Shown: positions 6,308 to 20,356 of the stretch, one piece after another | How the letters are laid out: every line of letters begins with the position of its first letter | How positions within the stretch are numbered: the first letter of the stretch is position 1 | DNA from: an uncultured Chloroflexia bacterium | Lineage (GTDB): Bacteria > Chloroflexota > Limnocylindria > Limnocylindrales > CSP1-4 | Reading direction: 5' to 3' | DNA: 64,000 bases | Assembly (NCBI GenBank): GCA_963828165.1 | Contig: CAWHDR010000001.1 | Span: 1,984,001-2,048,000 of the forward strand | Program-made: the position numbers and the translations under genes | The notes under the pieces: model-generated | Database searches by the model: none | What the model was told of the DNA's origin: nothing | Seen by the model: only the letters and a program-made list of their open reading frames with translations

Positions 6308-6491
6308 CCAACCTCCCGCCTAGCGTGTTCGGACGTTCCCGGGGGGCATGGTACTTCGCCACCGTCCGAAACGATGAGATCGCCGGGAGCCTCGTCCGTG
6401 CTCCCAAGGCGCCGGTAGTACCTCCGTACTCCCACGCAAGTACCGATGGTCCGGCGGCATGAGGGGTCGCGGGTGGGACGATGCAGCGGCC

Positions 6492-8693
6492 ATGAGCGCG
6501 CGCCAGCACCCGCACGAACCCTCGCCCGAGCACGGATCGGATCCTGGCCTCGCACTGACCCGACCCTCGCTCTATCGCCGCCTCCTCGGCGGTTCGGGCG
6601 CGTTCGGCGATGTCCTGACGGCCGACTCGAGTGACAGCCCGGAGACCCAACTCGCCGAGCGGCTCGACACGATCCTGAACATCGCCGAACGGCTGGCGGC
6701 CACGCACGATCGCACGGAGCTGTTCCGGACGATCGTCGACGAGACGCTTCGCGCGCTGCAGGTCGACCACGTGACGATCCGCGTCGTCGAAGACGGCGGC
6801 CTGGTCGTCGCCGCCTGGGCCGGCTTGTCCGATGAGGCGGCGCGGGCGCTGCCGGTGTTCCGCGTCGATGAGGGTTGGGTCGGGGAGGTCCTGCGGACGG
6901 GGCAGGTCGCCGCCTGGTCGGAGGCTCGCGAGGAACGCCCCATCGACCCCGAGCGATCCGAGGCCATCGTCGACGTCGCGGGCGACCTCATCGCGCCGCT
7001 CATCCACCACGACCGGGTCATCGGGGCGCTTTCCGCCGTCAGTCGCGAGCCGCGCGACTGGACCGATGGCGACATCGCGTTCCTGACCACCCTGGCCACG
7101 CATGCCGGCATCGCGCTCACGAACGCCGAGCTCTTCGAGCAGACCGAGGCGCGCGCGGCGCAGCTCGCCGTGCTGCAGGCCGCATCAGGGCGCCTGAACC
7201 GAGCGTCGTCCGTCGAAGCGGTGGGCCGGACGATCGTCGAGGAGACCCGCAAGATCATCGACTACCACAACGCCCGCGTGTACCTCGTGGAGCTGCCCGA
7301 CGAGGTGGTGCCGATCGCCTTCGAGGGCCGGGTCGGCGCGTATGAGCACGTCGACATGGACCTGCTTCGCTGCCACATCGGCGAAGGATTCACGGGCTGG
7401 GTCGCCGAGCATGGCGAGCCCCTGCTGATCAACGACGCGAACGCCGATCCGCGCGGCCAGACGATCACCGGCACGGACGACATCGATGAATCGATGCTCG
7501 TGGTGCCGATGCGGTACGACGGCATGACGGTCGGGGTCATCACCCTGTCCAAGCTCGGCTGCGACGGTTTCGACGCCGACGACCTCCGATTGCTCATGAT
7601 CCTCGCGGACCATGCCGCCACGGCTGCCGAGACGGCCCGGCTGCTGACGCGCAGCCAGGAGCTGGCCGGCGAGCTACGCCGCCTGCTCGAGATGTCCAGC
7701 GAGCTGTCCGGCAGCCTGGACCCGCGGCAGGTCGCCAACCTCATGGCGGGACACCTGACCCGTGCCATGGGCGTCGACGAATGCGCGATCAGCTACTGGG
7801 ATCGGCCCGGCGGAAGGCTCGAGTCGCTTGGGTTCTATCCGCCCATGGACGAGGCGCTCGAGCCGTACTTCCTGCTCGCGGGCTACCCGGAGACGCTGCG
7901 CGTCCTCGAGAGCCAGCAGCCCGCGATCGTCGACGCGGATGATCCGGCTGCCGATCGCGACGAAGTCAGGCTCATGGTCAGCGATGGGAACCGGATCCTC
8001 GCGATGCTGCCGCTCGTCGCGAAGGGCCAATCGATCGGTCTCGTCGAACTCTTCTCGAAGACCAAGATCCGCTGGGACGCCCAGCGGCTCGAGCTCGCTC
8101 GGACGATGGCCAACGAGGCGGCCATCGCGCTGGAGAACGCACGCCTGTACGAGGACGCGCGCAAGCTCGCCGACCGGGACCCACTGACCGGGTTCTACAA
8201 CCACCGGTTCCTGCACGAGCGCATGGGCGAGGAAGTCGTTCGCTCGCAGCGCGGCCGGCGGCCGTTGAGCGTGCTGATGCTGGACCTCGACGACTTCAAG
8301 CTGGTCAACGATACGTTCGGTCACCTCTTCGGCGACCGGGTCCTGACCTGGGCCGCCGAGGTGATCCGCTCGACCCTGCGTCTCTCCGACATCGCCGCCC
8401 GGTACGGCGGCGACGAGTTCGCCCTGATCCTGCCCGACACCGACGCGGACGAGGCGCGCCGCGCCGCCGAACGGATCCTCGACGCCTTCCGCGAGCGACC
8501 GTTCGTCGGGGAGAAGCGCGGGCCGGTGCCGATCGCGGCGTCGATCGGCGTCGCGACCTTCCCGGCGGACGGGCGAACCGGTACGGACCTGATCGCGGCC
8601 GCCGATGACGCCCTCTACAAGGTCAAGCGCGGGGGAGGCCACGACGCGGCCGCAGCCGGCAAGCCCGACGCGGGCAAGGGTGCGGCCGCGTAG
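6492..8693 (+). CDS. Diguanylate cyclase with three GAF domains
   Basis: Three GAF-like repeats ending in ALTNAEL / AAETARL / ALENARL; DPLTG, DLDDFKLVNDTFGH, RLSD I-site, RYGGDEF. Start chosen at ATG 6492. Confidence 0.92.
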   Translation: MSARQHPHEPSPEHGSDPGLALTRPSLYRRLLGGSGAFGDVLTADSSDSPETQLAERLDTILNIAERLAATHDRTELFRTIVDETLRALQVDHVTIRVVEDGGLVVAAWAGLSDEAARALPVFRVDEGWVGEVLRTGQVAAWSEAREERPIDPERSEAIVDVAGDLIAPLIHHDRVIGALSAVSREPRDWTDGDIAFLTTLATHAGIALTNAELFEQTEARAAQLAVLQAASGRLNRASSVEAVGRTIVEETRKIIDYHNARVYLVELPDEVVPIAFEGRVGAYEHVDMDLLRCHIGEGFTGWVAEHGEPLLINDANADPRGQTITGTDDIDESMLVVPMRYDGMTVGVITLSKLGCDGFDADDLRLLMILADHAATAAETARLLTRSQELAGELRRLLEMSSELSGSLDPRQVANLMAGHLTRAMGVDECAISYWDRPGGRLESLGFYPPMDEALEPYFLLAGYPETLRVLESQQPAIVDADDPAADRDEVRLMVSDGNRILAMLPLVAKGQSIGLVELFSKTKIRWDAQRLELARTMANEAAIALENARLYEDARKLADRDPLTGFYNHRFLHERMGEEVVRSQRGRRPLSVLMLDLDDFKLVNDTFGHLFGDRVLTWAAEVIRSTLRLSDIAARYGGDEFALILPDTDADEARRAAERILDAFRERPFVGEKRGPVPIAASIGVATFPADGRTGTDLIAAADDALYKVKRGGGHDAAAAGKPDAGKGAAA

Positions 8694-8779: not shown

Positions 8780-9985
8780 GTGACCCAACCAACCCTGCGG
8801 CCCGCTCGTCCCGTTGATCCGTCGGATCGACGGATCCGCCGGTCCTGGTGGCTCTTCTCCGGTGCCTTCCTCCTGATCGGCGTTGTCGCGATCGCGCGCG
8901 CCCTTGGCCGCGAAGCGGGTCCGATCGATTGGTTCCTCCTGGTGGCGGTGGTCGTGGCCGGCGTCGCGGCCCTGCTGCACGTCTCAGCCGTCCAGGGGCT
9001 CGACGCGCGCAGCCGATCCGAGACCGAATCGTTCGCCCGCATCCTGTCCGGGCTCTCGCGCTCGGTGTCGCCCGATGCGATCGTCGACGCCATCGTGGAG
9101 GAGCTCGGTGAGGCGACGCGTGCCGACCACATCGTGGTGGTGCGGCGACGACGCGGCACGAGCGTCGTGGAGGCTCGACTCGTCAGCTCGCACCCGGGCG
9201 TCCCCCACCACACAACCCTGCTCCCGGCCGGCGATCTCGGCGATCCCATCGACGGCGGGCGTCCTCCCCGACAGGCGGAGGCCGTGGAGCGGATCGCCCA
9301 CCGCGTCCGTGCCGTCTACGGGCTGACCCACGCCCTGGCCGAGCCGCTGACCGCGGGCGACGAGGTGGTGGGCGCGATCGTCCTCTCCCAACGGATCGGC
9401 GGGCGCTGGACCGACGCCACGCGTCGCCTCCTCTCGGCGGCCGCCGCCGAGGCATCGGCCGCCCTTGCCCGCGCTTACTCGCACCGAGCCGCCGAGGCAC
9501 AGGCCTCGACCGATTCGCTGACCGGGTTGCCCAACCGCCGCTACTTCGAGGAGTTCGTGTCGCTGCTCGCCAAGCGCCGTCGCGCGGGGGACGCCGTGGG
9601 GATCCTCATGGTCGACATCGACAAGTTCAAGGTCCTCAACGACACGCACGGCCACGCGACCGGCGACGAGGTGCTGCGGGCGGTCGCGAGCGCCATCGTG
9701 TCGGCGGTGCGCGAGGACGACGTCCCGGCGCGCTTCGGCGGGGAGGAGTTCGTCGTCCTGCTGCGAAACCCCGACCCCGGCGTGGCGATCGAAGTCGGGG
9801 AGCGGATCCGCGCCGCGGTCCGCGGCCTGGACCTCGGACGGTTCGGGGTGGCCACGGTCAGCGTCTCGGTCGGCGTCGCCGTCGCGGACGGACCGGACGA
9901 GCCGATCGAGGCTCTCATCGAGACCGCCGACCAGGCCCTGTACCGGGCGAAGCGCGGAGGTCGAGACCGGGTCGTCGCGGCCTGA
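8780..9985 (+). CDS. Membrane-anchored GAF-GGDEF diguanylate cyclase
   Basis: Two N-terminal TM helices, GAF-like region, DSLTGLPNRR, DIDKFKVLNDTHGH, REDD I-site, RFGGEEF. Confidence 0.9.
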   Translation: MTQPTLRPARPVDPSDRRIRRSWWLFSGAFLLIGVVAIARALGREAGPIDWFLLVAVVVAGVAALLHVSAVQGLDARSRSETESFARILSGLSRSVSPDAIVDAIVEELGEATRADHIVVVRRRRGTSVVEARLVSSHPGVPHHTTLLPAGDLGDPIDGGRPPRQAEAVERIAHRVRAVYGLTHALAEPLTAGDEVVGAIVLSQRIGGRWTDATRRLLSAAAAEASAALARAYSHRAAEAQASTDSLTGLPNRRYFEEFVSLLAKRRRAGDAVGILMVDIDKFKVLNDTHGHATGDEVLRAVASAIVSAVREDDVPARFGGEEFVVLLRNPDPGVAIEVGERIRAAVRGLDLGRFGVATVSVSVGVAVADGPDEPIEALIETADQALYRAKRGGRDRVVAA

Positions 9986-10003: not shown

Positions 10004-11893
10004 GTGACCGACGACCCGGGCCTCGGATCGGCCCCCGACCTCGACGACGACGTCCACGACCCGGCCGATGAGGACGACGGCCCGGGCGAGCTCACCAACG
10101 GCGACCTCGCCCGGATCTTCCACGACATCGGCGACATGCTCGAGGTGAAGGGCGAGCTCGTCTTCAAGACGGTCGCCTACCACCGCGCCGCCGATGCGAT
10201 CGGTCGCAGCCCCGTGGATCTCGTCGCGGCCTACCGCAGCGGCGAGGCCCCCAAGGTCCCGGGTGTGGGCGCGGCGATCAGCGACAAGATCAGGGAGCTC
10301 GCCACGACCGGCCGGATGGGCTTCTACGACCGGCTCTGCGCGGAGATCCCACCCAGCCTCGTGGAGCTGTTGCGGATCCCGGGGCTCGGGCCGCGGAGCG
10401 TCCGCCAGATCCACGCCGAGCTCGGTATCGAGACGATGGAAGATCTGCGCACGGCAGCCGAGGCGGGCAGCCTGCGCTCACTGCGCGGACTGTCGGTGAA
10501 GACCGAACAGCTCATCCTCGAGGGGATCGCCCGCCTCGAGTCGGCACCGAAGCGGATGCTCCTCCACCGCGCCGAGGCGACCCTGCTGGGGCTCATGGAG
10601 GCGCTGACCGACATGCCCGGCGTGCGGTCGATCGAGCCGGCGGGCTCGTTCCGGCGTCGCCGCGAGAGCATCGGCGACCTGGACCTCCTTGCCGAGACGG
10701 ACGACGGGCCGGGCCTGATCGAGCGCTTCACCACGCTGGGTGTCGTGGACCACGTCGTGAACAAGGGTGGCTACAAGGCGGCGGTCGGCCTGCTTCGCGG
10801 CCCCCAGGCCGACCTGATGGTCATGCCTCCAGGCACGGCCGGCACGTATCGCATCCACTTCACGGGGTCCAAGGAGCACAACGTGCGGCTCCGCGAGCGC
10901 GCCCGCGACGAGGGCTGGAGCCTGTCCGAGAAGGGCTTCCAGCGCATCGGCGAGGACGGGGAGCCGCTCACGGGTCCCGCTGCCGAGCTCCGGACATTCG
11001 CCACGGAGGCCGAGGCGTACGCCTTCCTCGGTCTCCCCTTCATCGAGCCGGAGCTGCGCGAGGATCGCGGCGAGATCGAGGCGGCCCTCGCCGGCACCCT
11101 GCCCCAGCTGATCGACCTCCCGGACCTGCGCGGCGACCTGCACAGCCACTCCGACTGGTCCGACGGGACGCACTCCATCGAAGTCATGGCCGAGTTCGCC
11201 CGCCGCCGGGGCCACGCCTACCAGGTGCTGACGGACCACTCCCAGTCACTGGCCATCGCCCGCGGCCTCACCCCCGACCGCGTGGAGCAGCAGCGGGTGA
11301 TCATCGCGGAGCTCAACGAGCGCTTCGCGGCCGAAGAAGCGGCGGGAACGGCGCCCCCGGAGACGCCGCCCGAAGGGTTCCGGCTCCTGCACGGCTGCGA
11401 GCTCGAGATCCGGGCGGATGGCGAGCTCGATTATCCGGACGAGCTGCTCGAACGGTTCGACCTGGTCGTGGCGTCGGTGCACGTCTCGCGCCGGCAATCG
11501 AAGGCGGACCTGACGCGGCGGACGCTTAACGGCATCCGCAGTCCGCACGTCGACGTCATCGCCCATCCGTCGGGGCGGATGATCGGTACCCGCGACGACC
11601 TTGACCTGGACTGGGACGCCGTTTATGCCGAGGCCGCGCGGACGGGGACCGTGCTCGAGATGAACGGCTCGCCCCACCGGCTCGACCTTGCGGTCGAGCG
11701 GGCACGACGGGCCGTCGAGGTCGGTTGCACGCTGTCGATCGACTCGGATGCCCACAAGACCGGCGAGTTCGAGCACCTGCGCTGGGGGATCAGCCAGGCG
11801 CGGCGGGCCTGGGTGGAGCCGCGCCACGTATTGAACACGCGCTCCCGGGCCGACCTGTTGGCCTGGGTCGCGGGCAAGCCGGGACGCGTGTGA
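10004..11893 (+). CDS. polX: DNA polymerase X / PHP 3'-5' exonuclease
   Basis: HhH motifs (IPGLGP), AGSFRRRRESIGDLD, HFTGSKEHN, PELREDRGEI, PHP motifs HSHSDWSDG, TDH, AHP, DSDAH. Confidence 0.93.
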   Translation: MTDDPGLGSAPDLDDDVHDPADEDDGPGELTNGDLARIFHDIGDMLEVKGELVFKTVAYHRAADAIGRSPVDLVAAYRSGEAPKVPGVGAAISDKIRELATTGRMGFYDRLCAEIPPSLVELLRIPGLGPRSVRQIHAELGIETMEDLRTAAEAGSLRSLRGLSVKTEQLILEGIARLESAPKRMLLHRAEATLLGLMEALTDMPGVRSIEPAGSFRRRRESIGDLDLLAETDDGPGLIERFTTLGVVDHVVNKGGYKAAVGLLRGPQADLMVMPPGTAGTYRIHFTGSKEHNVRLRERARDEGWSLSEKGFQRIGEDGEPLTGPAAELRTFATEAEAYAFLGLPFIEPELREDRGEIEAALAGTLPQLIDLPDLRGDLHSHSDWSDGTHSIEVMAEFARRRGHAYQVLTDHSQSLAIARGLTPDRVEQQRVIIAELNERFAAEEAAGTAPPETPPEGFRLLHGCELEIRADGELDYPDELLERFDLVVASVHVSRRQSKADLTRRTLNGIRSPHVDVIAHPSGRMIGTRDDLDLDWDAVYAEAARTGTVLEMNGSPHRLDLAVERARRAVEVGCTLSIDSDAHKTGEFEHLRWGISQARRAWVEPRHVLNTRSRADLLAWVAGKPGRV

Positions 11894-13809: not shown

Positions 13810-13838
13810 TTGACGCGACGCCCCACCGGTGCTAGAAA
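13810..13838 (+). promoter_or_regulatory. Putative sigma70 promoter for the TPR gene
   Basis: TTGACG-N17-TAGAAA preceded by a TGn extended -10; the last T of the -10 is non-consensus. Confidence 0.45.
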
Positions 13839-13975
13839 GCAAGGCCGCGCAGCGACCCGCGAGACGGTCGCGCGACCCGATCCGACGACCGTGCCGCGAT
13901 ACGCCGCGCACGACGACCAGACACGATGAACCGCAAGCTGCCCGATGAGTTCGCGCCCGAAAGGACGACCCGCCC

Positions 13976-14836
13976 GTGACCTTCCCCCCCGAAGTCGAGA
14001 CCAACGCCCAGAGTCCGGTCAACCTGACCCGCCAGAAGCGCCAGCTCGCCGAGCAGGCCATCGCCCAGGCATCGGCCGCCGACTGGACCGAGGCCGCCGC
14101 GACCAACCGCCGGCTCCTGGAGCTCGGCCCGGACGCCGAGGGTGAGAACCGGCTCGCCAAGGCGCTCTGGGAGCTCGGGATGCTCGGCGAAGCACGCGAG
14201 CACTACCAGACGGCTCTGGCGCTCGACCCCACGAACCGCATCGCCGAGCGCAACATCGACCGGCTCAAGGTGCTCCTGAACGCCGCCGGCGAGAAGACGG
14301 TCCCGGCGCAGGAGGGCAGCAAGGCCCCGGTCTCGATCTTCGTGGAGGAGACGGGCAAGACCGGGTTCGCCTTCCTGACCGACCTCGCCACCCCCAGGGA
14401 GCTGGCCCAGGTCAACCCCGGCGACGCCGTCGAGCTCACGCCCGAGAAGAACCGCCTGATCGCGTTCAGCAACGGCATGCGCATCGGCGTCGTCGAGCCC
14501 CGCGTCGCGGCCCGCCTGCTCAAGCTCATGGCGGACGGCAACAAGTACTCCGCCGGCGTCACGAGCCTCGGCGACAAGGACGTGCGCCTGATCATCCGCG
14601 AGATCTTCCAGGACCCGAGCAACTACGGGAAGGTCAGCTTCCCGACCGCGGCCAAGTCGACCGACCTGCGGCCCTACACGAAGGGCACCCTGGTGCGCGA
14701 GGAGATGGAGCTCGAGGAGGACCTCGAGGACGACGAGGAGGACGAGGAGATCGAGGATCTGGACCGCGTCCTGCCGCCGGAGTCGACGACCGAAGAAGCG
14801 TTCGAGGAAGAGCCCGACGAGCTCGACGAAGCGTAG
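13976..14836 (+). CDS. TPR protein with HIRAN-like domain and acidic tail
   Basis: TPR helices (NRLAKALWELGMLGEAREHYQTALALDPTN); VNPGDAVEL...RIGVVEPRVAARLLKLM segment resembles HIRAN; D/E-rich C-terminus; GAAAGGA SD. Confidence 0.75.
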   Translation: MTFPPEVETNAQSPVNLTRQKRQLAEQAIAQASAADWTEAAATNRRLLELGPDAEGENRLAKALWELGMLGEAREHYQTALALDPTNRIAERNIDRLKVLLNAAGEKTVPAQEGSKAPVSIFVEETGKTGFAFLTDLATPRELAQVNPGDAVELTPEKNRLIAFSNGMRIGVVEPRVAARLLKLMADGNKYSAGVTSLGDKDVRLIIREIFQDPSNYGKVSFPTAAKSTDLRPYTKGTLVREEMELEEDLEDDEEDEEIEDLDRVLPPESTTEEAFEEEPDELDEA

Positions 14837-14840
14837 GGCG

Positions 14841-15704
14841 TCAGCCCGGGCCGGCCGCCCGCACCGACGCCGCCGTCGCGGCAGCGTTCTGGGCAGCATC
14901 CAGCGCCACGCCGATCGCGCTCCCGTCAGGGGGTCGCGGCCAGACAGCGGCCTCGAGCCGACCCCAGGCGGCCGACACGAGCCGCACGAGGCGTTCGACC
15001 TCGGATGGCTGGCGGCCCAGCCACACGAGCGTCTTGTCGACCTGCACGGTGTGTTCGGTGATGTGCGAGGCCCAGCGCCCCTGACGGAAGCCGACCGTGA
15101 CGGGGAGGCCGGACCAGCGCGCCGCGAGGCCCAGCTCCTCGGCCGTCAGGTCGGACATCAGGTTGGCGGCGTCCTCCACCGCCACATGGATGCGGCTCCG
15201 GATCTCATCGAGGGACCCGTTCGCGGCGACGTCTTCGTCCCAGGCCGGGTCGATGAGGCCGTCGGGCGCGAACGGCAGATGCTCGTCGCTGATGCGGATG
15301 CGCTGCCGGCGCCACCAGTCGTTGTAGACAGCGTACCCATGCTGGCTCGCGATGATGTGCGCCACGGTCTGACGGACCGTCCATTCGCCCCCACCCGGAT
15401 CGGCGTCGAGATCCGCCTCGGTCAGTGGCGCCAGCAGGCCGATCAGCTCCCAGCGAGCGATCGTGGCCGGCGCGACGATCGCCTGGTCGGCGGGACGGGC
15501 GACGCCGCGGGCGTCGAACGTGGCGGTGACCGCGTCCAGGTCCTCGATGATCCGGAACAGTCCGGAGCGTCGATCAAGCTCGCCGTGATCCGGCCATGTC
15601 CACGCCACCTCGAGCGTGTCGTCGCCGACCGCAAGCAGGTCGCCGAGAGCGCCCTCGATGAGGCGCCGAGCGTCGTCCAGACCGGGATGCGGGTCGGTCG
15701 TCAT
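14841..15704 (-). CDS. DinB/YfiT-like protein
   Basis: GEWTVRQTVAHI and HITEHTVQV histidine motifs; leaderless-type TAGTGT upstream. Confidence 0.75.
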   Translation of the reverse strand: MTTDPHPGLDDARRLIEGALGDLLAVGDDTLEVAWTWPDHGELDRRSGLFRIIEDLDAVTATFDARGVARPADQAIVAPATIARWELIGLLAPLTEADLDADPGGGEWTVRQTVAHIIASQHGYAVYNDWWRRQRIRISDEHLPFAPDGLIDPAWDEDVAANGSLDEIRSRIHVAVEDAANLMSDLTAEELGLAARWSGLPVTVGFRQGRWASHITEHTVQVDKTLVWLGRQPSEVERLVRLVSAAWGRLEAAVWPRPPDGSAIGVALDAAQNAAATAASVRAAGPG

Positions 15705-15790
15705 CTCGGTCGCAACACTACGAGCGTGCGTGCGTGCTGTCGACCCGCCGTGACCGCGGCTGGCGGCCGTGGGCTAGCATCGTCGGCAGC

Positions 15791-18568
15791 ATGACCAGCC
15801 GTGTCGCCTCTGCGCGCGCCGAAGCGGGGTATTCGCTACCCGCCTTCGAGCGGCTCGCGCCTGCCCCGTCGGCGACGTTGCTCGCCGCCCGCATCGAGGC
15901 GCACACGGGGCCAGGCGACATCGTCGTCGACCTGGCGGGGCGGGGTGGCTGGGTGGCTCGCGCCGCCCTGGACCGTCAGCGTCGCGCCGTGTCCGTCGAA
16001 TCGACCCCGCTGACGCGGATGCTCGCGGAGGTCGTGCTTCGTCCGCCGGACGTGCGCCACCTCGACGCCGCGTTCCAGGGCATGTCGGCGTCTCCGCGGC
16101 GGGAGACCAGCCTGAAGGTGTCGATCGGCGACCTGTTCGCGACCCGCTGTGCGACCTGCGGGCGGATGCTCGTCGCCGACGAGTTCACCTGGTCCGCCGA
16201 GGAGGATGGGCCGGCCAAGGCCGTCACCCGCCACTACCGCTGCACGGTCTGTCGCGACCAGCGGGGTGGATCCGAGCAGCGGCAGGCCCCGCTCGAAGCC
16301 GATGACGTGGCGCGCTCGCTGGCCGATGCCGACCTCGAGGCGGCGCGTGCCTGGGCGATCGAGCGGTTCCCGGTGGTCGAGGGGGCCCCGGGGCTCGTCG
16401 ACGAGCTGCTCGAGCTGCACACCCCACGTCAGCTCATCGCGCTGACCGCGATCATGGAGCGGATCGAGACCGACCTGCGTGCGGCCAACGTCCTTGCCGC
16501 GCTCCGTCTCTCGCTCCTGCATGCGCTGCTGCCGTCCAGCCGGCTCGTCGGCGCGGCCGGCCGGGGCGGATCCCTGCGCGTCGCCGGCGGTCACGTCCGG
16601 CTCCCGGCAGCCACGCAATGGCGTGAGCGCAACCCATGGCTCGCGTTCGAGGATGCCTTCCGTGCCGTGCGCGGGTTCGTCCAACGCCTCGAGGGCGGGG
16701 CGCTCGGACCCATGCAGGCGCGTTTGGGCGAGGACCTGCGCTCGCTCGGCGAAGGATCGGCCACGGCGGTCCTGGCGATCGCCAGCCCGTCGGCGGTGCG
16801 TGCGCTGAGCGACGGGAGCCTCGCCCTCCACGATCGGGCCGGCGCACCGGCGCCGCGCGTCCGACTCGTCCTGGGTCAGCCACCGATCCGACCCAGCCTC
16901 GAGCGGCTGGCCGCCGCCTACCACGGAACGGCGTGGACCCTGGGCCGCGAGGCCGCGGCGATGCTGCCCATCGATGCGCTGGCCGACACGTCCTTGCGGG
17001 CGCCGTGGTCGTGGCAGGCGGTCGCGATCGGACGGTCGCTGGCGGCGGTCGAGCCGTCGATGGCGCGCGACGGTCGCGTGGTCCAGCTCGTCGACGGCGG
17101 GATGGAGGCCCTGGCCGCGGTGGCGATCGGCGGAGCCTCGGCCGGCTACCGCGTGACGGTCGCACGGCTCTCGGATCCCGACGATGCCGGCGCCGGCGTG
17201 ATCGAGCTCGTGCCACCCGGCGCCGCCCTGCCTCCCGGTCCGCGCACGAGAGGCAACGTCGGATTGCCCGCGATCCCGGGCGGGGCGGGAGATCCGGACA
17301 TGGTCCCGGGACGCGGGTTGTTCGCTCCGCCAGAACGGTTCGACCAGCGTCCGTTCTCGCCGGCAGAGGCAGCGACCGCGGTCACGGAGTCCGTGGTCGA
17401 GACCCTGCGTGCCCGGGGCGAGCCGGCTCGCATGGAACGGCTCTTCGGCGAGGTCCTCGTCGGCCTTGACCGGTCGGGCCAGCTCCGCCGCCTCGCCGCG
17501 GGCACCCGTCCCGCCACGACCGACGGCGGCGACGGCAAGCCTGGGTCCGCTCGTCCAGCCTCAGGCGGGACGGCCGATGTCGCCCCGGTCCCCAAGGTGC
17601 CTGACCCGCCCTCGGTCGACCCGGCGGTCGCCGCGGCGGACGCGCGGGAACCGCATGCCGATGCCCGTTCGAACGGCGGTGCTCCCGACCCCGTCGACCG
17701 TCTGCTCGCCGTGATCCGCGATGAGCTGGCGCGGCCGAACCACCGCCGTCTGACCGAGATCGAGCCCGGCCGCTGGTGGTTGGCCGACCGCGACGATGTC
17801 GAGGCGGCTGCCGCACCGCTCGCAGACCGGGTGGAATGGGCGGTCTTCAGCCTCCTGTCCACCGCGGGACCCCTGTCGGAGACCGCGTTCTACGATCGGA
17901 TGGCGACGATGTTCAGCGGCCACGACCTGCCCGACGAGACGCTCGTCCATGCCTGCCTGGACAGCTATCGGAGCATGGCCAGTACGCCCGACCGGCTCAT
18001 CACCGGCGATGACCTGCTCAAACGCAGCCAGGAGCACACCGAGCTCCTGGCGATGCTCGCCGACGCCGGGCATCGCATGGGGATGCGGGTCTGGCTGTCG
18101 CAGCGCGAGCAGGCACGTCGCCACGGGCGGGGGATGCTCGCCGATCTCCTCGGTGAACGCGAACAGACCGTCGGCCTTGGTGGCATCGCGCGATCGGTGC
18201 CCGAGATCGCGGACGTCGACGCGATCTGGTACGTGCGCGGCAAGGTCGCGTTGTTGTTCGAGGTGGAATGGACGGCGGTCCTCGGCGAGCCGCTGCTGCG
18301 CCGACACCCGCGCATCGGCGCGGACGAGAAGCTCATCCGGTTCCTCGCGGTCGCCCCGGAACGGACCGATCTCGTCCGGCACAAGCTCGAGCGCTCCCCG
18401 CTCCTGCGCGCGGCCATGGACGAGTACGGCTGGCACATCATCAAGTGGGATCACCTTCGGACATTCCTCGCCGCGGACCTGCCGGACCTGGATGCCCTGG
18501 AACCGCTGCTGGGTCTCGATCCGTTCGTCGAACGCGGCGGCGAACAGATGCCGCTGTTCGGCGGCTGA
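15791..18568 (+). CDS. Large DNA methyltransferase-like protein (degenerate motifs) with Zn ribbon and C-terminal PD-(D/E)XK-like domain
   Basis: HTGPGDIVVDLAGRGG (motif I-like), CATC...CTVC, HTPRQLIAL, ERNPWLAFE, LVLGQPP (motif IV-like), VDAIWY...LLFEVEWT, terminal EQMPLFGG. Confidence 0.7.
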   Translation: MTSRVASARAEAGYSLPAFERLAPAPSATLLAARIEAHTGPGDIVVDLAGRGGWVARAALDRQRRAVSVESTPLTRMLAEVVLRPPDVRHLDAAFQGMSASPRRETSLKVSIGDLFATRCATCGRMLVADEFTWSAEEDGPAKAVTRHYRCTVCRDQRGGSEQRQAPLEADDVARSLADADLEAARAWAIERFPVVEGAPGLVDELLELHTPRQLIALTAIMERIETDLRAANVLAALRLSLLHALLPSSRLVGAAGRGGSLRVAGGHVRLPAATQWRERNPWLAFEDAFRAVRGFVQRLEGGALGPMQARLGEDLRSLGEGSATAVLAIASPSAVRALSDGSLALHDRAGAPAPRVRLVLGQPPIRPSLERLAAAYHGTAWTLGREAAAMLPIDALADTSLRAPWSWQAVAIGRSLAAVEPSMARDGRVVQLVDGGMEALAAVAIGGASAGYRVTVARLSDPDDAGAGVIELVPPGAALPPGPRTRGNVGLPAIPGGAGDPDMVPGRGLFAPPERFDQRPFSPAEAATAVTESVVETLRARGEPARMERLFGEVLVGLDRSGQLRRLAAGTRPATTDGGDGKPGSARPASGGTADVAPVPKVPDPPSVDPAVAAADAREPHADARSNGGAPDPVDRLLAVIRDELARPNHRRLTEIEPGRWWLADRDDVEAAAAPLADRVEWAVFSLLSTAGPLSETAFYDRMATMFSGHDLPDETLVHACLDSYRSMASTPDRLITGDDLLKRSQEHTELLAMLADAGHRMGMRVWLSQREQARRHGRGMLADLLGEREQTVGLGGIARSVPEIADVDAIWYVRGKVALLFEVEWTAVLGEPLLRRHPRIGADEKLIRFLAVAPERTDLVRHKLERSPLLRAAMDEYGWHIIKWDHLRTFLAADLPDLDALEPLLGLDPFVERGGEQMPLFGG

Positions 18569-18679
18569 GGGTCCCGCGCGCTACATTACGGCTCCAATCA
18601 GGCCGCAGCCACGACCCGGGCGGCGCGGCTCGGATCCGGGCGGCGCAGCCCGCTCGCAGGGGAGGCATCGAGACCCACG

Positions 18680-20356
18680 ATGACCGACGACCGTTCCACC
18701 GTGGACGCATTGTCCGACCGCTACTGGGAGAGCATCCTCGAGCTCGATCCGACGACCGCCACCTTCTACGGCGACGAGCGCTATGCGGACCGGTTGGAGG
18801 ACCCGTCACCGGCTGGTCGTGCGAAGGTCCGCGATTTGATGGCCCGGACGGCGGCGGAGGCGATGGCCATCCCGGTGGAGGGGCTCTCGACCGAGGAGCG
18901 CATCACCCGCGACATGCTCCGCGTGATCGGCGAGCTTCGTGTCGAGGAGGACGACCAGGGCCTGCACCAGCTCCGCGTCGTGGACCAGATGGGCGGGCCC
19001 CAGCAGCTGCTGCCCCAGCTGACGCAGTTCCAGCCGGTCGACACGCCCGAGCGGCTCGACGCGTTCATCGCGAGGCTGCATGCGTATCCCGCGTTCATGG
19101 CCGCCAACGCCGACATCCTGCGCGAAGCGCTCGGCACCGGCCTGACGGCACCATCGATCGTGACCGAGCGGACGATCGCCCAGATCGAGCGCATGCTCGA
19201 GATCCCGATCGACGAGGCGATCATCCCCTCCAGCGTGAAAGGTGCGTCCGACGCCGATCGGGAGCGCATCCGCGAGGTCGTGCGCGACGTCGTCTATCCC
19301 GCGGATGAGGCCTTCCTCGAAGTGCTCACTGGCGACTACCGGCGCGCCAGTCGCGAAGAGCCCGGCATCTGGTCGGCGCCCAACGGCGAGGCGATCTATC
19401 GGACGGCGATCCGGAGCTGGACCACACTCGAGATGGACCCCCGCGAGATCCACCAGATCGGCATGGACGAGCTCGAGACCATCGAGGATGAACGACGAGA
19501 GATCGCCGGAGCCGCCGGCTTCGGCGACGACACGGCCGCCTATCGTGCCAGCCTGGACGCCGACGACGCCAACACACCGGGGACCAAGGATCAGCTCGTC
19601 CAGCGCGCGGCCGAGGATCTCGACCGAGCCATGGCGGCGGCCCCGCGCTACTTCGGCCGGCTGCCGAAGGCGGGGCTCGACGTCCGGCCGGTCGAGGAAT
19701 ACAAGGAGCGGGACGCTCCGTTCGCCTACTACTACCCGCCGTCCGCCGATGGATCGCGCGATGGCATCTACTACGCGAACGGCTACGACCTCCAGTCGCG
19801 CAAATACACGAAGCTCGCCTCGACGACGTACCACGAAGCGGCACCGGGCCACCACTTCCAGATCGCCCTGGAGATGGAGAACACGCGCCTGAACACGTTC
19901 CGCCGGCTCGGCGCCCGTGCAGTAGGTGGCGCCTACGTCGAAGGCTGGGGCCTCTACAGCGAGCGCCTCGCCGACGAGATGGGTCTCTACCGATCGGAAG
20001 GGGAGCGGTTCGGGATGCTCGACGCGCAGGCGTGGCGGGCGGCGCGGCTCGTCGTGGACACCGGGTTGCACGCCCTGCGCTGGGAGCGCCAGCGCTCGAT
20101 CGACTTCCTGCGGAACGCCGGGCTGTCCGAAACCGACGCCGTCATCGAGACCGACCGCTACATCTGCTGGCCGGGCCAGGCCCTGACCTACAAGCTGGGC
20201 CAGCGCCAGATCGAGAAGCTGCGACGGGAGCTCACGGAGCGGGACGGCGCGCAGTTCGACCTGCGCGAGTTCCACGACCAGGTCCTCGGGCACGGGTCGC
20301 TGCCACTCGCGACGCTCGCTCGCGAGCTGCCGACCTGGGTTGCGACGCCAGCCTGA
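18680..20356 (+). CDS. DUF885 family protein (putative metallopeptidase-like)
   Basis: AYYYPPS.DGSRDG, HEAAPGHHFQ, YVEGWGLYSE, RAARLVVDTGLH, PGQALTYKLG. Confidence 0.9.
   Translation: MTDDRSTVDALSDRYWESILELDPTTATFYGDERYADRLEDPSPAGRAKVRDLMARTAAEAMAIPVEGLSTEERITRDMLRVIGELRVEEDDQGLHQLRVVDQMGGPQQLLPQLTQFQPVDTPERLDAFIARLHAYPAFMAANADILREALGTGLTAPSIVTERTIAQIERMLEIPIDEAIIPSSVKGASDADRERIREVVRDVVYPADEAFLEVLTGDYRRASREEPGIWSAPNGEAIYRTAIRSWTTLEMDPREIHQIGMDELETIEDERREIAGAAGFGDDTAAYRASLDADDANTPGTKDQLVQRAAEDLDRAMAAAPRYFGRLPKAGLDVRPVEEYKERDAPFAYYYPPSADGSRDGIYYANGYDLQSRKYTKLASTTYHEAAPGHHFQIALEMENTRLNTFRRLGARAVGGAYVEGWGLYSERLADEMGLYRSEGERFGMLDAQAWRAARLVVDTGLHALRWERQRSIDFLRNAGLSETDAVIETDRYICWPGQALTYKLGQRQIEKLRRELTERDGAQFDLREFHDQVLGHGSLPLATLARELPTWVATPA

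Follow-up and report, generated by a model that had tools for sequence, protein, structure and literature searches.

What work would a bacterial chromosome keep for a protein that joins a degenerate DNA methylase and a zinc ribbon to a restriction-type nuclease, and that ends in a peptide of the kind that binds the DnaN sliding clamp? The question is raised by a gene at positions 15791..18568 (+ strand) of the window, by which we mean the whole 64,000-nucleotide stretch of contig CAWHDR010000001.1 analysed here (assembly GCA_963828165.1, from an uncultured member of the Chloroflexota class Limnocylindria). The gene is a single-copy, vertically inherited Chloroflexota gene, and we describe its architecture, conservation, selection and genomic context. 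From these features we infer loss of methyl transfer, nuclease activity, clamp binding and a biological role. The product would be a DnaN-tethered DNA endonuclease that acts on newly replicated DNA, a proposal read from sequence to which we give about an even chance of being correct.

The gene consists of an uninterrupted frame of 925 codons plus a stop, encoding a 925-amino acid (aa) protein, and a comparison of N-termini showed that the orthologues share its start ATG at 15791. The motifs quoted in an earlier note on this DNA, which was made from the letters alone, were all found in the translation, namely VDLAGRGG, LVLGQPPI, CxxC...CxxC, VDAIWY-x7-LFEVEWT (residues 809-828) and the terminal EQMPLFGG. 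The “leaderless-type promoter” of the same note was not confirmed, since a consensus scan of 15500-18900 gave 0 promoter-like (sigma-70-like) sites, a result that says little for a genome of ~70% G+C. The G+C content was 0.738 in the bin 16001-18000 versus 0.676-0.731 in the remaining bins of the window. A protein search returned 1730 relatives of the window protein, with 1142 representatives. Below, “close relatives” denotes the 121 proteins, counting the window protein, that share at least 69% identity, and A2 denotes a 33-member family alignment. Pfam assigned no family to the window protein or to three close relatives, the library used for the window-protein scan not including the PF27126 model, and NCBIfam assigned none to the window protein. 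A whole-chain fold search was uninformative, with a best match of only E 0.045. The AlphaFold model of the whole protein had a mean predicted local distance difference test score (pLDDT) of 83.3 and a predicted template modelling score of 0.79. Disorder was modelled at residues 482-502, in a linker at residues 573-629 and in the last eight residues (918-925, pLDDT <50).

The N-terminal part is related to the beta-class N6/N4 DNA methylases. The A2 profile matched M.RsrI (E 6.4e-6), 2zie (E 4.4e-5) and M.MboIIA (E 1e-3), followed by M.PvuII and CcrM. The main match placed A2 positions 18-75 against M.RsrI residues 217-276, in the motif-I region, and a weak second stretch placed positions 329-363 against M.RsrI residues 36-70, in the DPPY region. 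The alignment of these two regions implies a methylase fold with a permuted motif order, in which motif I precedes motif IV. In the window protein, the first half of this Rossmann-type fold spans residues 13-100 (15827..16090, +) and the second half residues 351-480 (16841..17230, +). The two halves are parted by a 250-residue insertion (residues 101-350; 16091..16840, +), modelled mostly at pLDDT >85, which holds a Cys4 zinc ribbon, a helical domain and a conserved WRERNPW hairpin. All 33 A2 sequences share the ribbon cysteines C120, C123, C151 and C154 (16148-16252, +), as well as E279 and W283. The nearest Atlas clusters for residues 1-572 were 96-100% PF01555 (scores 0.90-0.94), and PADLOC gave weak matches to MTase_II at residues 28-98 and to REase_II at residues 747-829. 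The window protein did not reach the PF01555 gathering score. Distant members that carry the C-terminal clamp-type tail (tailed members) scored 16-30 bits against PF01555, at the motif-I end only, and relatives with intact methylase motifs scored 51-79 bits, which reaches the family threshold.

Both methylase motifs are degenerate. Motif I (VDLAGRGG, residues 46-53; 15926-15949, +), inside the first methylase half, reads A-G-R-G-G at residues 49-53 and not FxGxG, and the form D-L-x-G-R-G-G was present in 109 of the 121 close relatives. The M.RsrI alignment showed Arg at the first glycine of FxGxG in the window protein; in distant members, this position holds Arg, Gln or His. Motif IV (LVLGQPPI, residues 359-366; 16865-16888, +), inside the second half, reads GQPPI at residues 362-366, and GQPP[MIVLS] was found in 113 of the 121 close relatives. 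The D/N/S residue and the aromatic residue of this motif were both lost in the members of the tailed Chloroflexota clade that we examined; elsewhere in this clade, the motif is variable, with S, T, R, E, A or Q before PP and a non-aromatic residue after it, and with an occasional RPPY. Neither motif was restored in any tailed Chloroflexota member examined, and the methylase ancestry with degenerate motifs I and IV, noted earlier for the single protein, was thus upheld across the clade. The degeneration of the S-adenosylmethionine (SAM) loop and of the catalytic (D/N/S)PP(Y/F) motif indicates that methyl transfer has most likely been lost, a conclusion that is well supported rather than proven. 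D47 and the motif-II acidic residue E70 are retained, and the same positions contact SAM in real methylases.

The C-terminal domain (residues 742-915; 18014..18535, +) was provisionally assigned as NmeDI_C, a nuclease domain of the PD-(D/E)xK type. PF27126 (NmeDI_C) is a precomputed match on many close relatives, including the 96%-identical P0003, and the Atlas cluster for residues 630-925 is NmeDI_C (score 0.96), with PF27126 on 70% of its members. The region of residues 630-925 (the C-terminal 296 aa), modelled alone, reached a pLDDT of 93. The leading Foldseek matches of this model in the PDB were all PD-(D/E)xK nucleases (best E 5.7e-3, probability 0.66-0.80), comprising MspJI as the best match, R2 endonuclease, AF2093, FokI, Card1/VC1899, NucS, HindIII and N.BspD6I. 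These matches support the restriction-nuclease-type domain that had been proposed for this end of the protein. In the core motif D810...E824-V-E826 (18215-18274, +), D810 is invariant in A2, as is E791 upstream of it, and at least 90% of the A2 sequences retain E826. The sequence D...FEVEWTA was present in 121 of the 121 close relatives. The Lys position of the PD-(D/E)xK core is occupied by Glu in the window protein, giving the pattern D...ExE, which is a known working variant of D...ExK, as in BamHI.

The protein ends in the beta-clamp-binding-type pentapeptide Q919-M-P-L-F923 (18545..18559, +), two residues from the C-terminus. A passage of PMC2705854 gives QLxLF as the published beta-clamp consensus. 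Among the 282 family proteins with the C-terminal domain aligned to its end, the strict tail Q[LMIV]x[LM]F was found in 235 and a looser version in 256, so that the expected conservation of QxxLF in homologues held. The 26 misses were mostly members of one cluster (P0233) with QQLAFRW, together with a few frameshifted or truncated records and two relatives with intact methylase motifs. In the window's own genome (3.31 Mb, 87.7% complete), the strict tail was present in the last 15 residues of 2 of the 11,343 stop-to-stop open reading frames (ORFs) of at least 150 aa, implying that it is more than a chance occurrence. The other tailed ORF is a uracil-DNA glycosylase (UDG) of the UDG superfamily (G000:C1:2798176-2799675, +; locus L114; Pfam E 1e-36), which bears a long Ala/Pro-rich C-terminal extension with the end DQLSLF.

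We folded residues 742-925 together with the DnaN of the same genome (372 aa; L081:739-1857, minus strand), the gene of which adjoins dnaA. The interaction prediction score from aligned errors (ipSAE) was 0.46 (runs 0.44, 0.49 and 0.46), as compared with a best score of 0.00 in three complex controls. The runs shared at least 69% of their contacts, and the partner pLDDT was at least 77. The ipSAE mark is reached by 58 of 80 solved complexes and by 2 of 110 mismatched pairs, and at ipSAE ≤0.60 by only 7 of the 80 solved complexes and by both passing mismatches; these benchmark counts are approximate here because the prediction used custom alignments (DnaN 29 rows). The prediction of a DnaN complex had been proposed as a check in the earlier note; since the score falls in the range where both mismatches passed, we rate the support as weak. 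The pass may also reflect memory, because clamp-peptide complexes have already been solved.

The ratio of nonsynonymous to synonymous substitution rates (dN/dS) was 0.07-0.18 overall in seven orthologue pairs with the window gene. It was lowest in the methylase halves (0.011-0.07 in the first and 0.015-0.09 in the second) and 0.04-0.25 in the nuclease domain. These values, lowest in the very halves that have “died” as a methylase, indicate that the gene is not decaying; the possibility of decay, raised in the earlier note, is ruled out by strong purifying selection. Between the methylase-like module and the nuclease, the helical, winged-helix-like domain (residues 634-730; 17690..17980, +), with weak fold matches to SelB winged helices, gave 0.017-0.11. 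The low-complexity disordered linker (residues 573-629; 17507..17677, +; pLDDT <50) gave 0.45-0.9, and its length and sequence vary among relatives. One orthologue, at L001:8001-10776 in a 96%-identical metagenome-assembled genome (MAG), was left out of the calculation because its listed range has 3 stops; this range is 2776 nt long, not a multiple of three, and points to a frameshift or an assembly error.

Based on these parts, a mechanism can be proposed. Where DnaN sliding clamps stay behind on DNA after replication, the tail would occupy the hydrophobic groove of the clamp and so tether the protein, and the dead methylase with its zinc ribbon would form the DNA-binding or target-reading part. 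The NmeDI_C nuclease, with its intact D...ExE acidic core, would then nick or cut the DNA, and the outcome would be a replication-coupled DNA-processing or maintenance endonuclease. Several observations weigh against this proposal. Every nuclease fold match lies above E 1e-3, the complex prediction gives clamp binding by the tail weak support, and no conserved partner gene or operon indicates a pathway. With D47 and E70 retained, the module may bind SAM or a related ligand. Furthermore, Anaerolineae-type relatives of ~740-810 aa lack D810 and E826 and retain the tail, with FYLIASAL, FLIRQKV or FAIQWTA in place of FEVEWTA in the forms from families f9 and f33. The loss of the nuclease residues in tailed Anaerolineae forms implies that cutting is not universal to the family, the common function of which may be non-catalytic. 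The tails of the nuclease-dead forms read, for example, AQLPLFP, GQLMMF and SQLALL. At loci L123-L134 (f9, f33) and in P0436-P0473, both methylase motifs and the nuclease acids are lost, and the zinc ribbon and Q-x-x-[LM]-F are kept.

The main rival, which we consider unlikely, holds that the protein is a non-catalytic clamp-bound DNA-binding factor, acting as a scaffold or regulator that marks or organises new DNA, or competing for clamp sites. The nuclease fold would then do no more than bind DNA or mediate dimerisation. No other features are as widely kept as the tail and the zinc ribbon, and the f9 and f33 forms without the nuclease acids still end in AQLPLFP, GQLMMF or similar. In addition, the methylase module is already non-catalytic and is yet the most constrained part of the protein. 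The nuclease core of the window clade speaks for the opposite: D...FEVEWTA is unbroken in all 121 members, E791 and D810 do not vary in A2, and the dN/dS of the domain (0.04-0.25) is as expected of a working active site.

A second rival, which appears distinctly unlikely, concerns the tail. Under this explanation, Q-x-x-L-F would not be a clamp motif at all, and would instead be a conserved hydrophobic end for self-packing or oligomerisation. The motif is short, the P0233 cluster has its QQLAFRW variant, and some members are without the motif; moreover, at the complex score obtained, a pass is wrong more often than right if the guess was not already likely. An end used for packing fits poorly with a motif that is terminal, follows Gly-rich flexible residues and is modelled as disordered. 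The motif is also kept among members that are 25-30% identical while its flanks vary, the sole other tailed ORF of the genome is a DNA-repair glycosylase, and the three complex controls scored 0.00.

The history of the tail can be read from the relatives in which the methylase motifs are intact. These proteins, of ~780-840 aa (P0491, P0492, P0494 and metagenome loci L140-L216), share the domain order and the zinc-ribbon cysteines of the window protein. The full-length metagenome relatives number 48, some of them near-duplicates (e.g., L149-151, L183/184); all have DPFxGSG and DPPY, and 47 have FE[VIL]E. The clamp-type tail was present in its strict form in 5 of the 48 and in its loose form in 20; the ends include SSGQLGLF, CEQMNLF, KQLDLL and DQLHLF plus a short extension, and others are of the [EN]YxLF type. 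A tail unique to the dead-methylase clade, which we had considered, is rejected on these counts, and the clamp-type tail thus predates the death of the methylase. A scenario in which the tail was gained along with methylase loss, as a restriction-modification (R-M) enzyme was domesticated, therefore does not stand, the loose tail occurring in 20 of 48 intact relatives in housekeeping surroundings.

The contigs of the intact relatives span 32-69% G+C, and the neighbouring genes that were checked encode enolase, phosphoglucomutase, class-II tRNA synthetase, MacB/FtsX, CinA (two loci), RadC-like and NFACT proteins. No plasmid record covers at least 80% of the intact relative P0492; the plasmid matches to P0492 are to the methylase half only, in genes annotated “DNA methyltransferase” or “DUF1156”. 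The intact relatives do not look like classical mobile R-M genes. In two unrelated loci (among L179:8953-10257, L212:8431-9669 and L158:5243-5905), the damage/competence gene CinA lies directly downstream of an intact relative, and in a third locus a RadC-like (UPF0758) gene lies directly upstream of one.

Relatives were detected by a pattern scan in 486 species genomes, the best 80 of which were all Limnocylindria or Chloroflexota MAGs. In a sample of 301 genomes of the phylum, the tallies of which (as also those of MutL_C, below) include the unpublished genomes G181, G162, G258 and G038, none of them the basis of a specific claim, some match was present in 230, most of them ordinary methylases matching the motif-I region only. 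Matches at E 1e-27 or better, counted from the 301-genome listing, were found in 67 genomes, corresponding to 16 of 16 in family f1 plus the window's own genome, 15 of 15 in f3, one partial match in f2, and 34 genomes of other families. The gene is single copy.

In the window, the neighbours of the gene are two GAF-GGDEF proteins, a PolX, an alpha/beta hydrolase, an unknown 355-aa ORF and a divergent DinB_2, followed downstream by DUF885, a DAO oxidoreductase and a class-III aminotransferase. No R-M partner or mobile gene occurs among these neighbours, in agreement with the earlier description of the surroundings, and the chromosomal locus is stable. Across 50 loci of the class with full flanks, the ORF at 13832 was syntenic in 50, PolX in 49 and DUF885 in 47. 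The most constant neighbour is thus the 355-aa ORF (13832-14899, −), which lies just upstream in divergent orientation and is without a Pfam match. The PolX-type DNA polymerase (HHH_8, DNA_pol_B_thumb, PHP; 10004-11893, +) lies 4 kb upstream, and the diguanylate-cyclase-type GAF-GGDEF pair (6459-8693, +, and 8780-9985, +; 744 and 401 aa) is syntenic in 37 and 47 of the 50 loci, respectively. None of the window neighbours was found near the orthologue in 20 loci of other lineages, where the neighbours are glycosyltransferases, alpha-amylase, penicillin-binding protein and two-component genes. A functional link to PolX or the other neighbours was rejected on this ground, none of them accompanying the gene in the 20 loci outside the class. 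The class-wide synteny and the housekeeping neighbours elsewhere indicate a stand-alone core chromosomal gene that is not part of a defence island.

We also considered a methylase partner acting in trans. A motif-intact paralogue was found in 11 of 12 f1 genomes and in none of 28 genomes from the rest of the class, and is thus uncoupled from the window gene. This paralogue, P0548, is a 492-aa PF01555 methylase (G000:C1:75243-76721, +; L135:1744-3222) with DPFSGRG and SPPY in the permuted order, I before IV, and without the zinc ribbon and the nuclease domain. It lies 1.9 Mb from the window gene, and no further PF01555 gene was found in the genome.

These data bear on a third rival, in which the protein would serve in defence as a Type IV or Type II-like restriction enzyme. 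It would use the host clamp to reach phage or plasmid DNA during replication and attack it, and its dead methylase would recognise a base that is modified or foreign. Genes for defence tend to have a patchy distribution, to lie in islands and to turn over fast. The window gene, by comparison, is present in 31 of 31 sampled genomes of two families, is single copy and syntenic in its class with housekeeping flanks elsewhere, and evolves at a dN/dS of ~0.1; in addition, no PADLOC system model was significant. We therefore regard a defence role as improbable, even with the R-M-type descent of its parts (PF01555, NmeDI_C), a best fold match to the modification-dependent enzyme MspJI and the weak PADLOC matches to MTase_II and REase_II. 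Mobile elements are known to exploit the beta clamp (PMC4549789, PMC6698660), which also favours such a role.

The earlier note suggested that the protein might read hemimethylation, mismatches or lesions, a specific role that phyletic complementarity with MutL does not back, as described below. The window's own genome has a single MutS-family gene, for a MutS2 that bears an Smr domain, and gave no match to MutL_C and none to NucS_C (PF01939). None of 41 Limnocylindria genomes gave a match to MutS domain I, and none of 35 gave one to MutL_C (16 of f1 plus the window's own genome, 3 of f2 and 15 of f3). NucS_C gave only short partial matches in 15 of the 41 genomes, 6 of them over the cut-off, in ORFs of 120-310 aa. 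Limnocylindria thus appears to be without canonical mismatch repair. A paper on the Limnocylindraceae discusses the loss of base-excision repair, in passages that do not give the status of mutS or mutL (PMC13212565).

The absence of MutS domain I, of MutL_C and of a convincing NucS from the class suggests a bolder extension of the proposed function, to which we assign only a small chance. Limnocylindria could have a third, undescribed post-replicative repair route, with the window protein as its replication-error or lesion endonuclease and its family as clamp-riding methylase-nucleases. In such a route, the dead methylase would serve as a sensor that flips bases, position and strand orientation would come from the clamp, and NmeDI_C would nick. 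In the wider form of this idea, the whole family, intact members included, would be the bacterial equivalent of maintenance methylation coupled to the clamp. The earlier note had proposed co-occurrence with mismatch-repair genes as a check, and phyletic complementarity with MutL was not seen, because MutL_C is present in 33 of the 34 carriers that lie beyond the class (E ≤1e-27). The family is therefore not a simple MutL substitute, and a role as a MutL replacement was rejected.

The weakest rival, a working fused R-M enzyme whose methylase is still active via unconventional motifs, could point to the retained D47 and E70 and to the strong constraint on the methylase halves, but is highly improbable given that the first Gly of FxGxG has become R, Q or H, that motif IV is without its D/N/S and aromatic residues in tailed Chloroflexota, that all 48 intact relatives have preserved DPFxGSG and DPPY, and that the window protein does not reach PF01555.

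The preferred reading thus remains that of a clamp-tethered endonuclease acting on newly replicated DNA. A class that appears to be without recognised mismatch repair keeps, under strong selection, a clamp-motif nuclease assembled from R-M parts. Should the protein bind DnaN and cut DNA, it would be a new client of the bacterial sliding clamp and a clear case of an R-M-type enzyme family serving as a housekeeping, replication-coupled factor. The family comprises three grades, with methylase and nuclease both intact, with a dead methylase and an intact nuclease, and with both dead; clamp-type tails occur in each, so that the grades form a series for probing the role of the tether. A literature search found no published account of the family. 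Its parts are all of known kinds, and it is the combination and the housekeeping behaviour that are undescribed, Pfam covering the C-terminal domain only.

Among known systems, the same concept, a clamp-tethered nuclease or methylase acting on newly made DNA, underlies MutH/MutL and DNMT1-PCNA. MutH is itself a domesticated restriction-type nuclease. The parallel is one of concept, as neither has a sequence relationship to the window protein, for which a link to a mismatch sensor would be hypothetical. R-M systems of Type II, IIC and IIG have an active cognate methylase in cis or adjacent, and the window locus is without one.

Similarity at the level of domains is found with two groups of R-M enzymes. 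The beta-class methylases (PF01555; M.RsrI, M.MboIIA, M.PvuII, CcrM) are significantly similar to the family profile in the motif-I region and weakly in the motif-IV region. Relative to M.RsrI, the family has motif I before motif IV with the 250-residue insertion between them, a permuted order, and does not keep FxGxG and DPPY. R.NmeDI is the namesake of PF27126, the family recorded on close relatives of the window protein, and is likened to it here by description. According to passages of PMC2095814, R.NmeDI is a Type II restriction endonuclease of Neisseria meningitidis, a 351-aa stand-alone nuclease whose gene adjoins its own C5 methylase and which cuts on both sides of RCCGGY. The intact relatives, which combine a Zn-ribbon N6/N4 methylase with NmeDI_C, are themselves uncharacterised; they differ from the window protein in keeping both motifs, and the window protein has a longer disordered linker.

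EndoMS/NucS differs from the window protein in size and build, being ~220-250 aa long, with a DNA-binding domain of its own at the N-terminus and no methylase module. NucS_C gave no Pfam match on the window protein, and mismatch specificity would be hypothetical for the window protein. NucS structures are nevertheless among the weak fold matches of the C-terminal model (2vld, probability 0.47; 5gke, probability 0.30). As described in parts of PMC6159521, EndoMS/NucS is a clamp-dependent mismatch endonuclease of Actinobacteria and archaea, and this PD-(D/E)xK nuclease with a C-terminal clamp motif is the closest functional analogue of the window protein.

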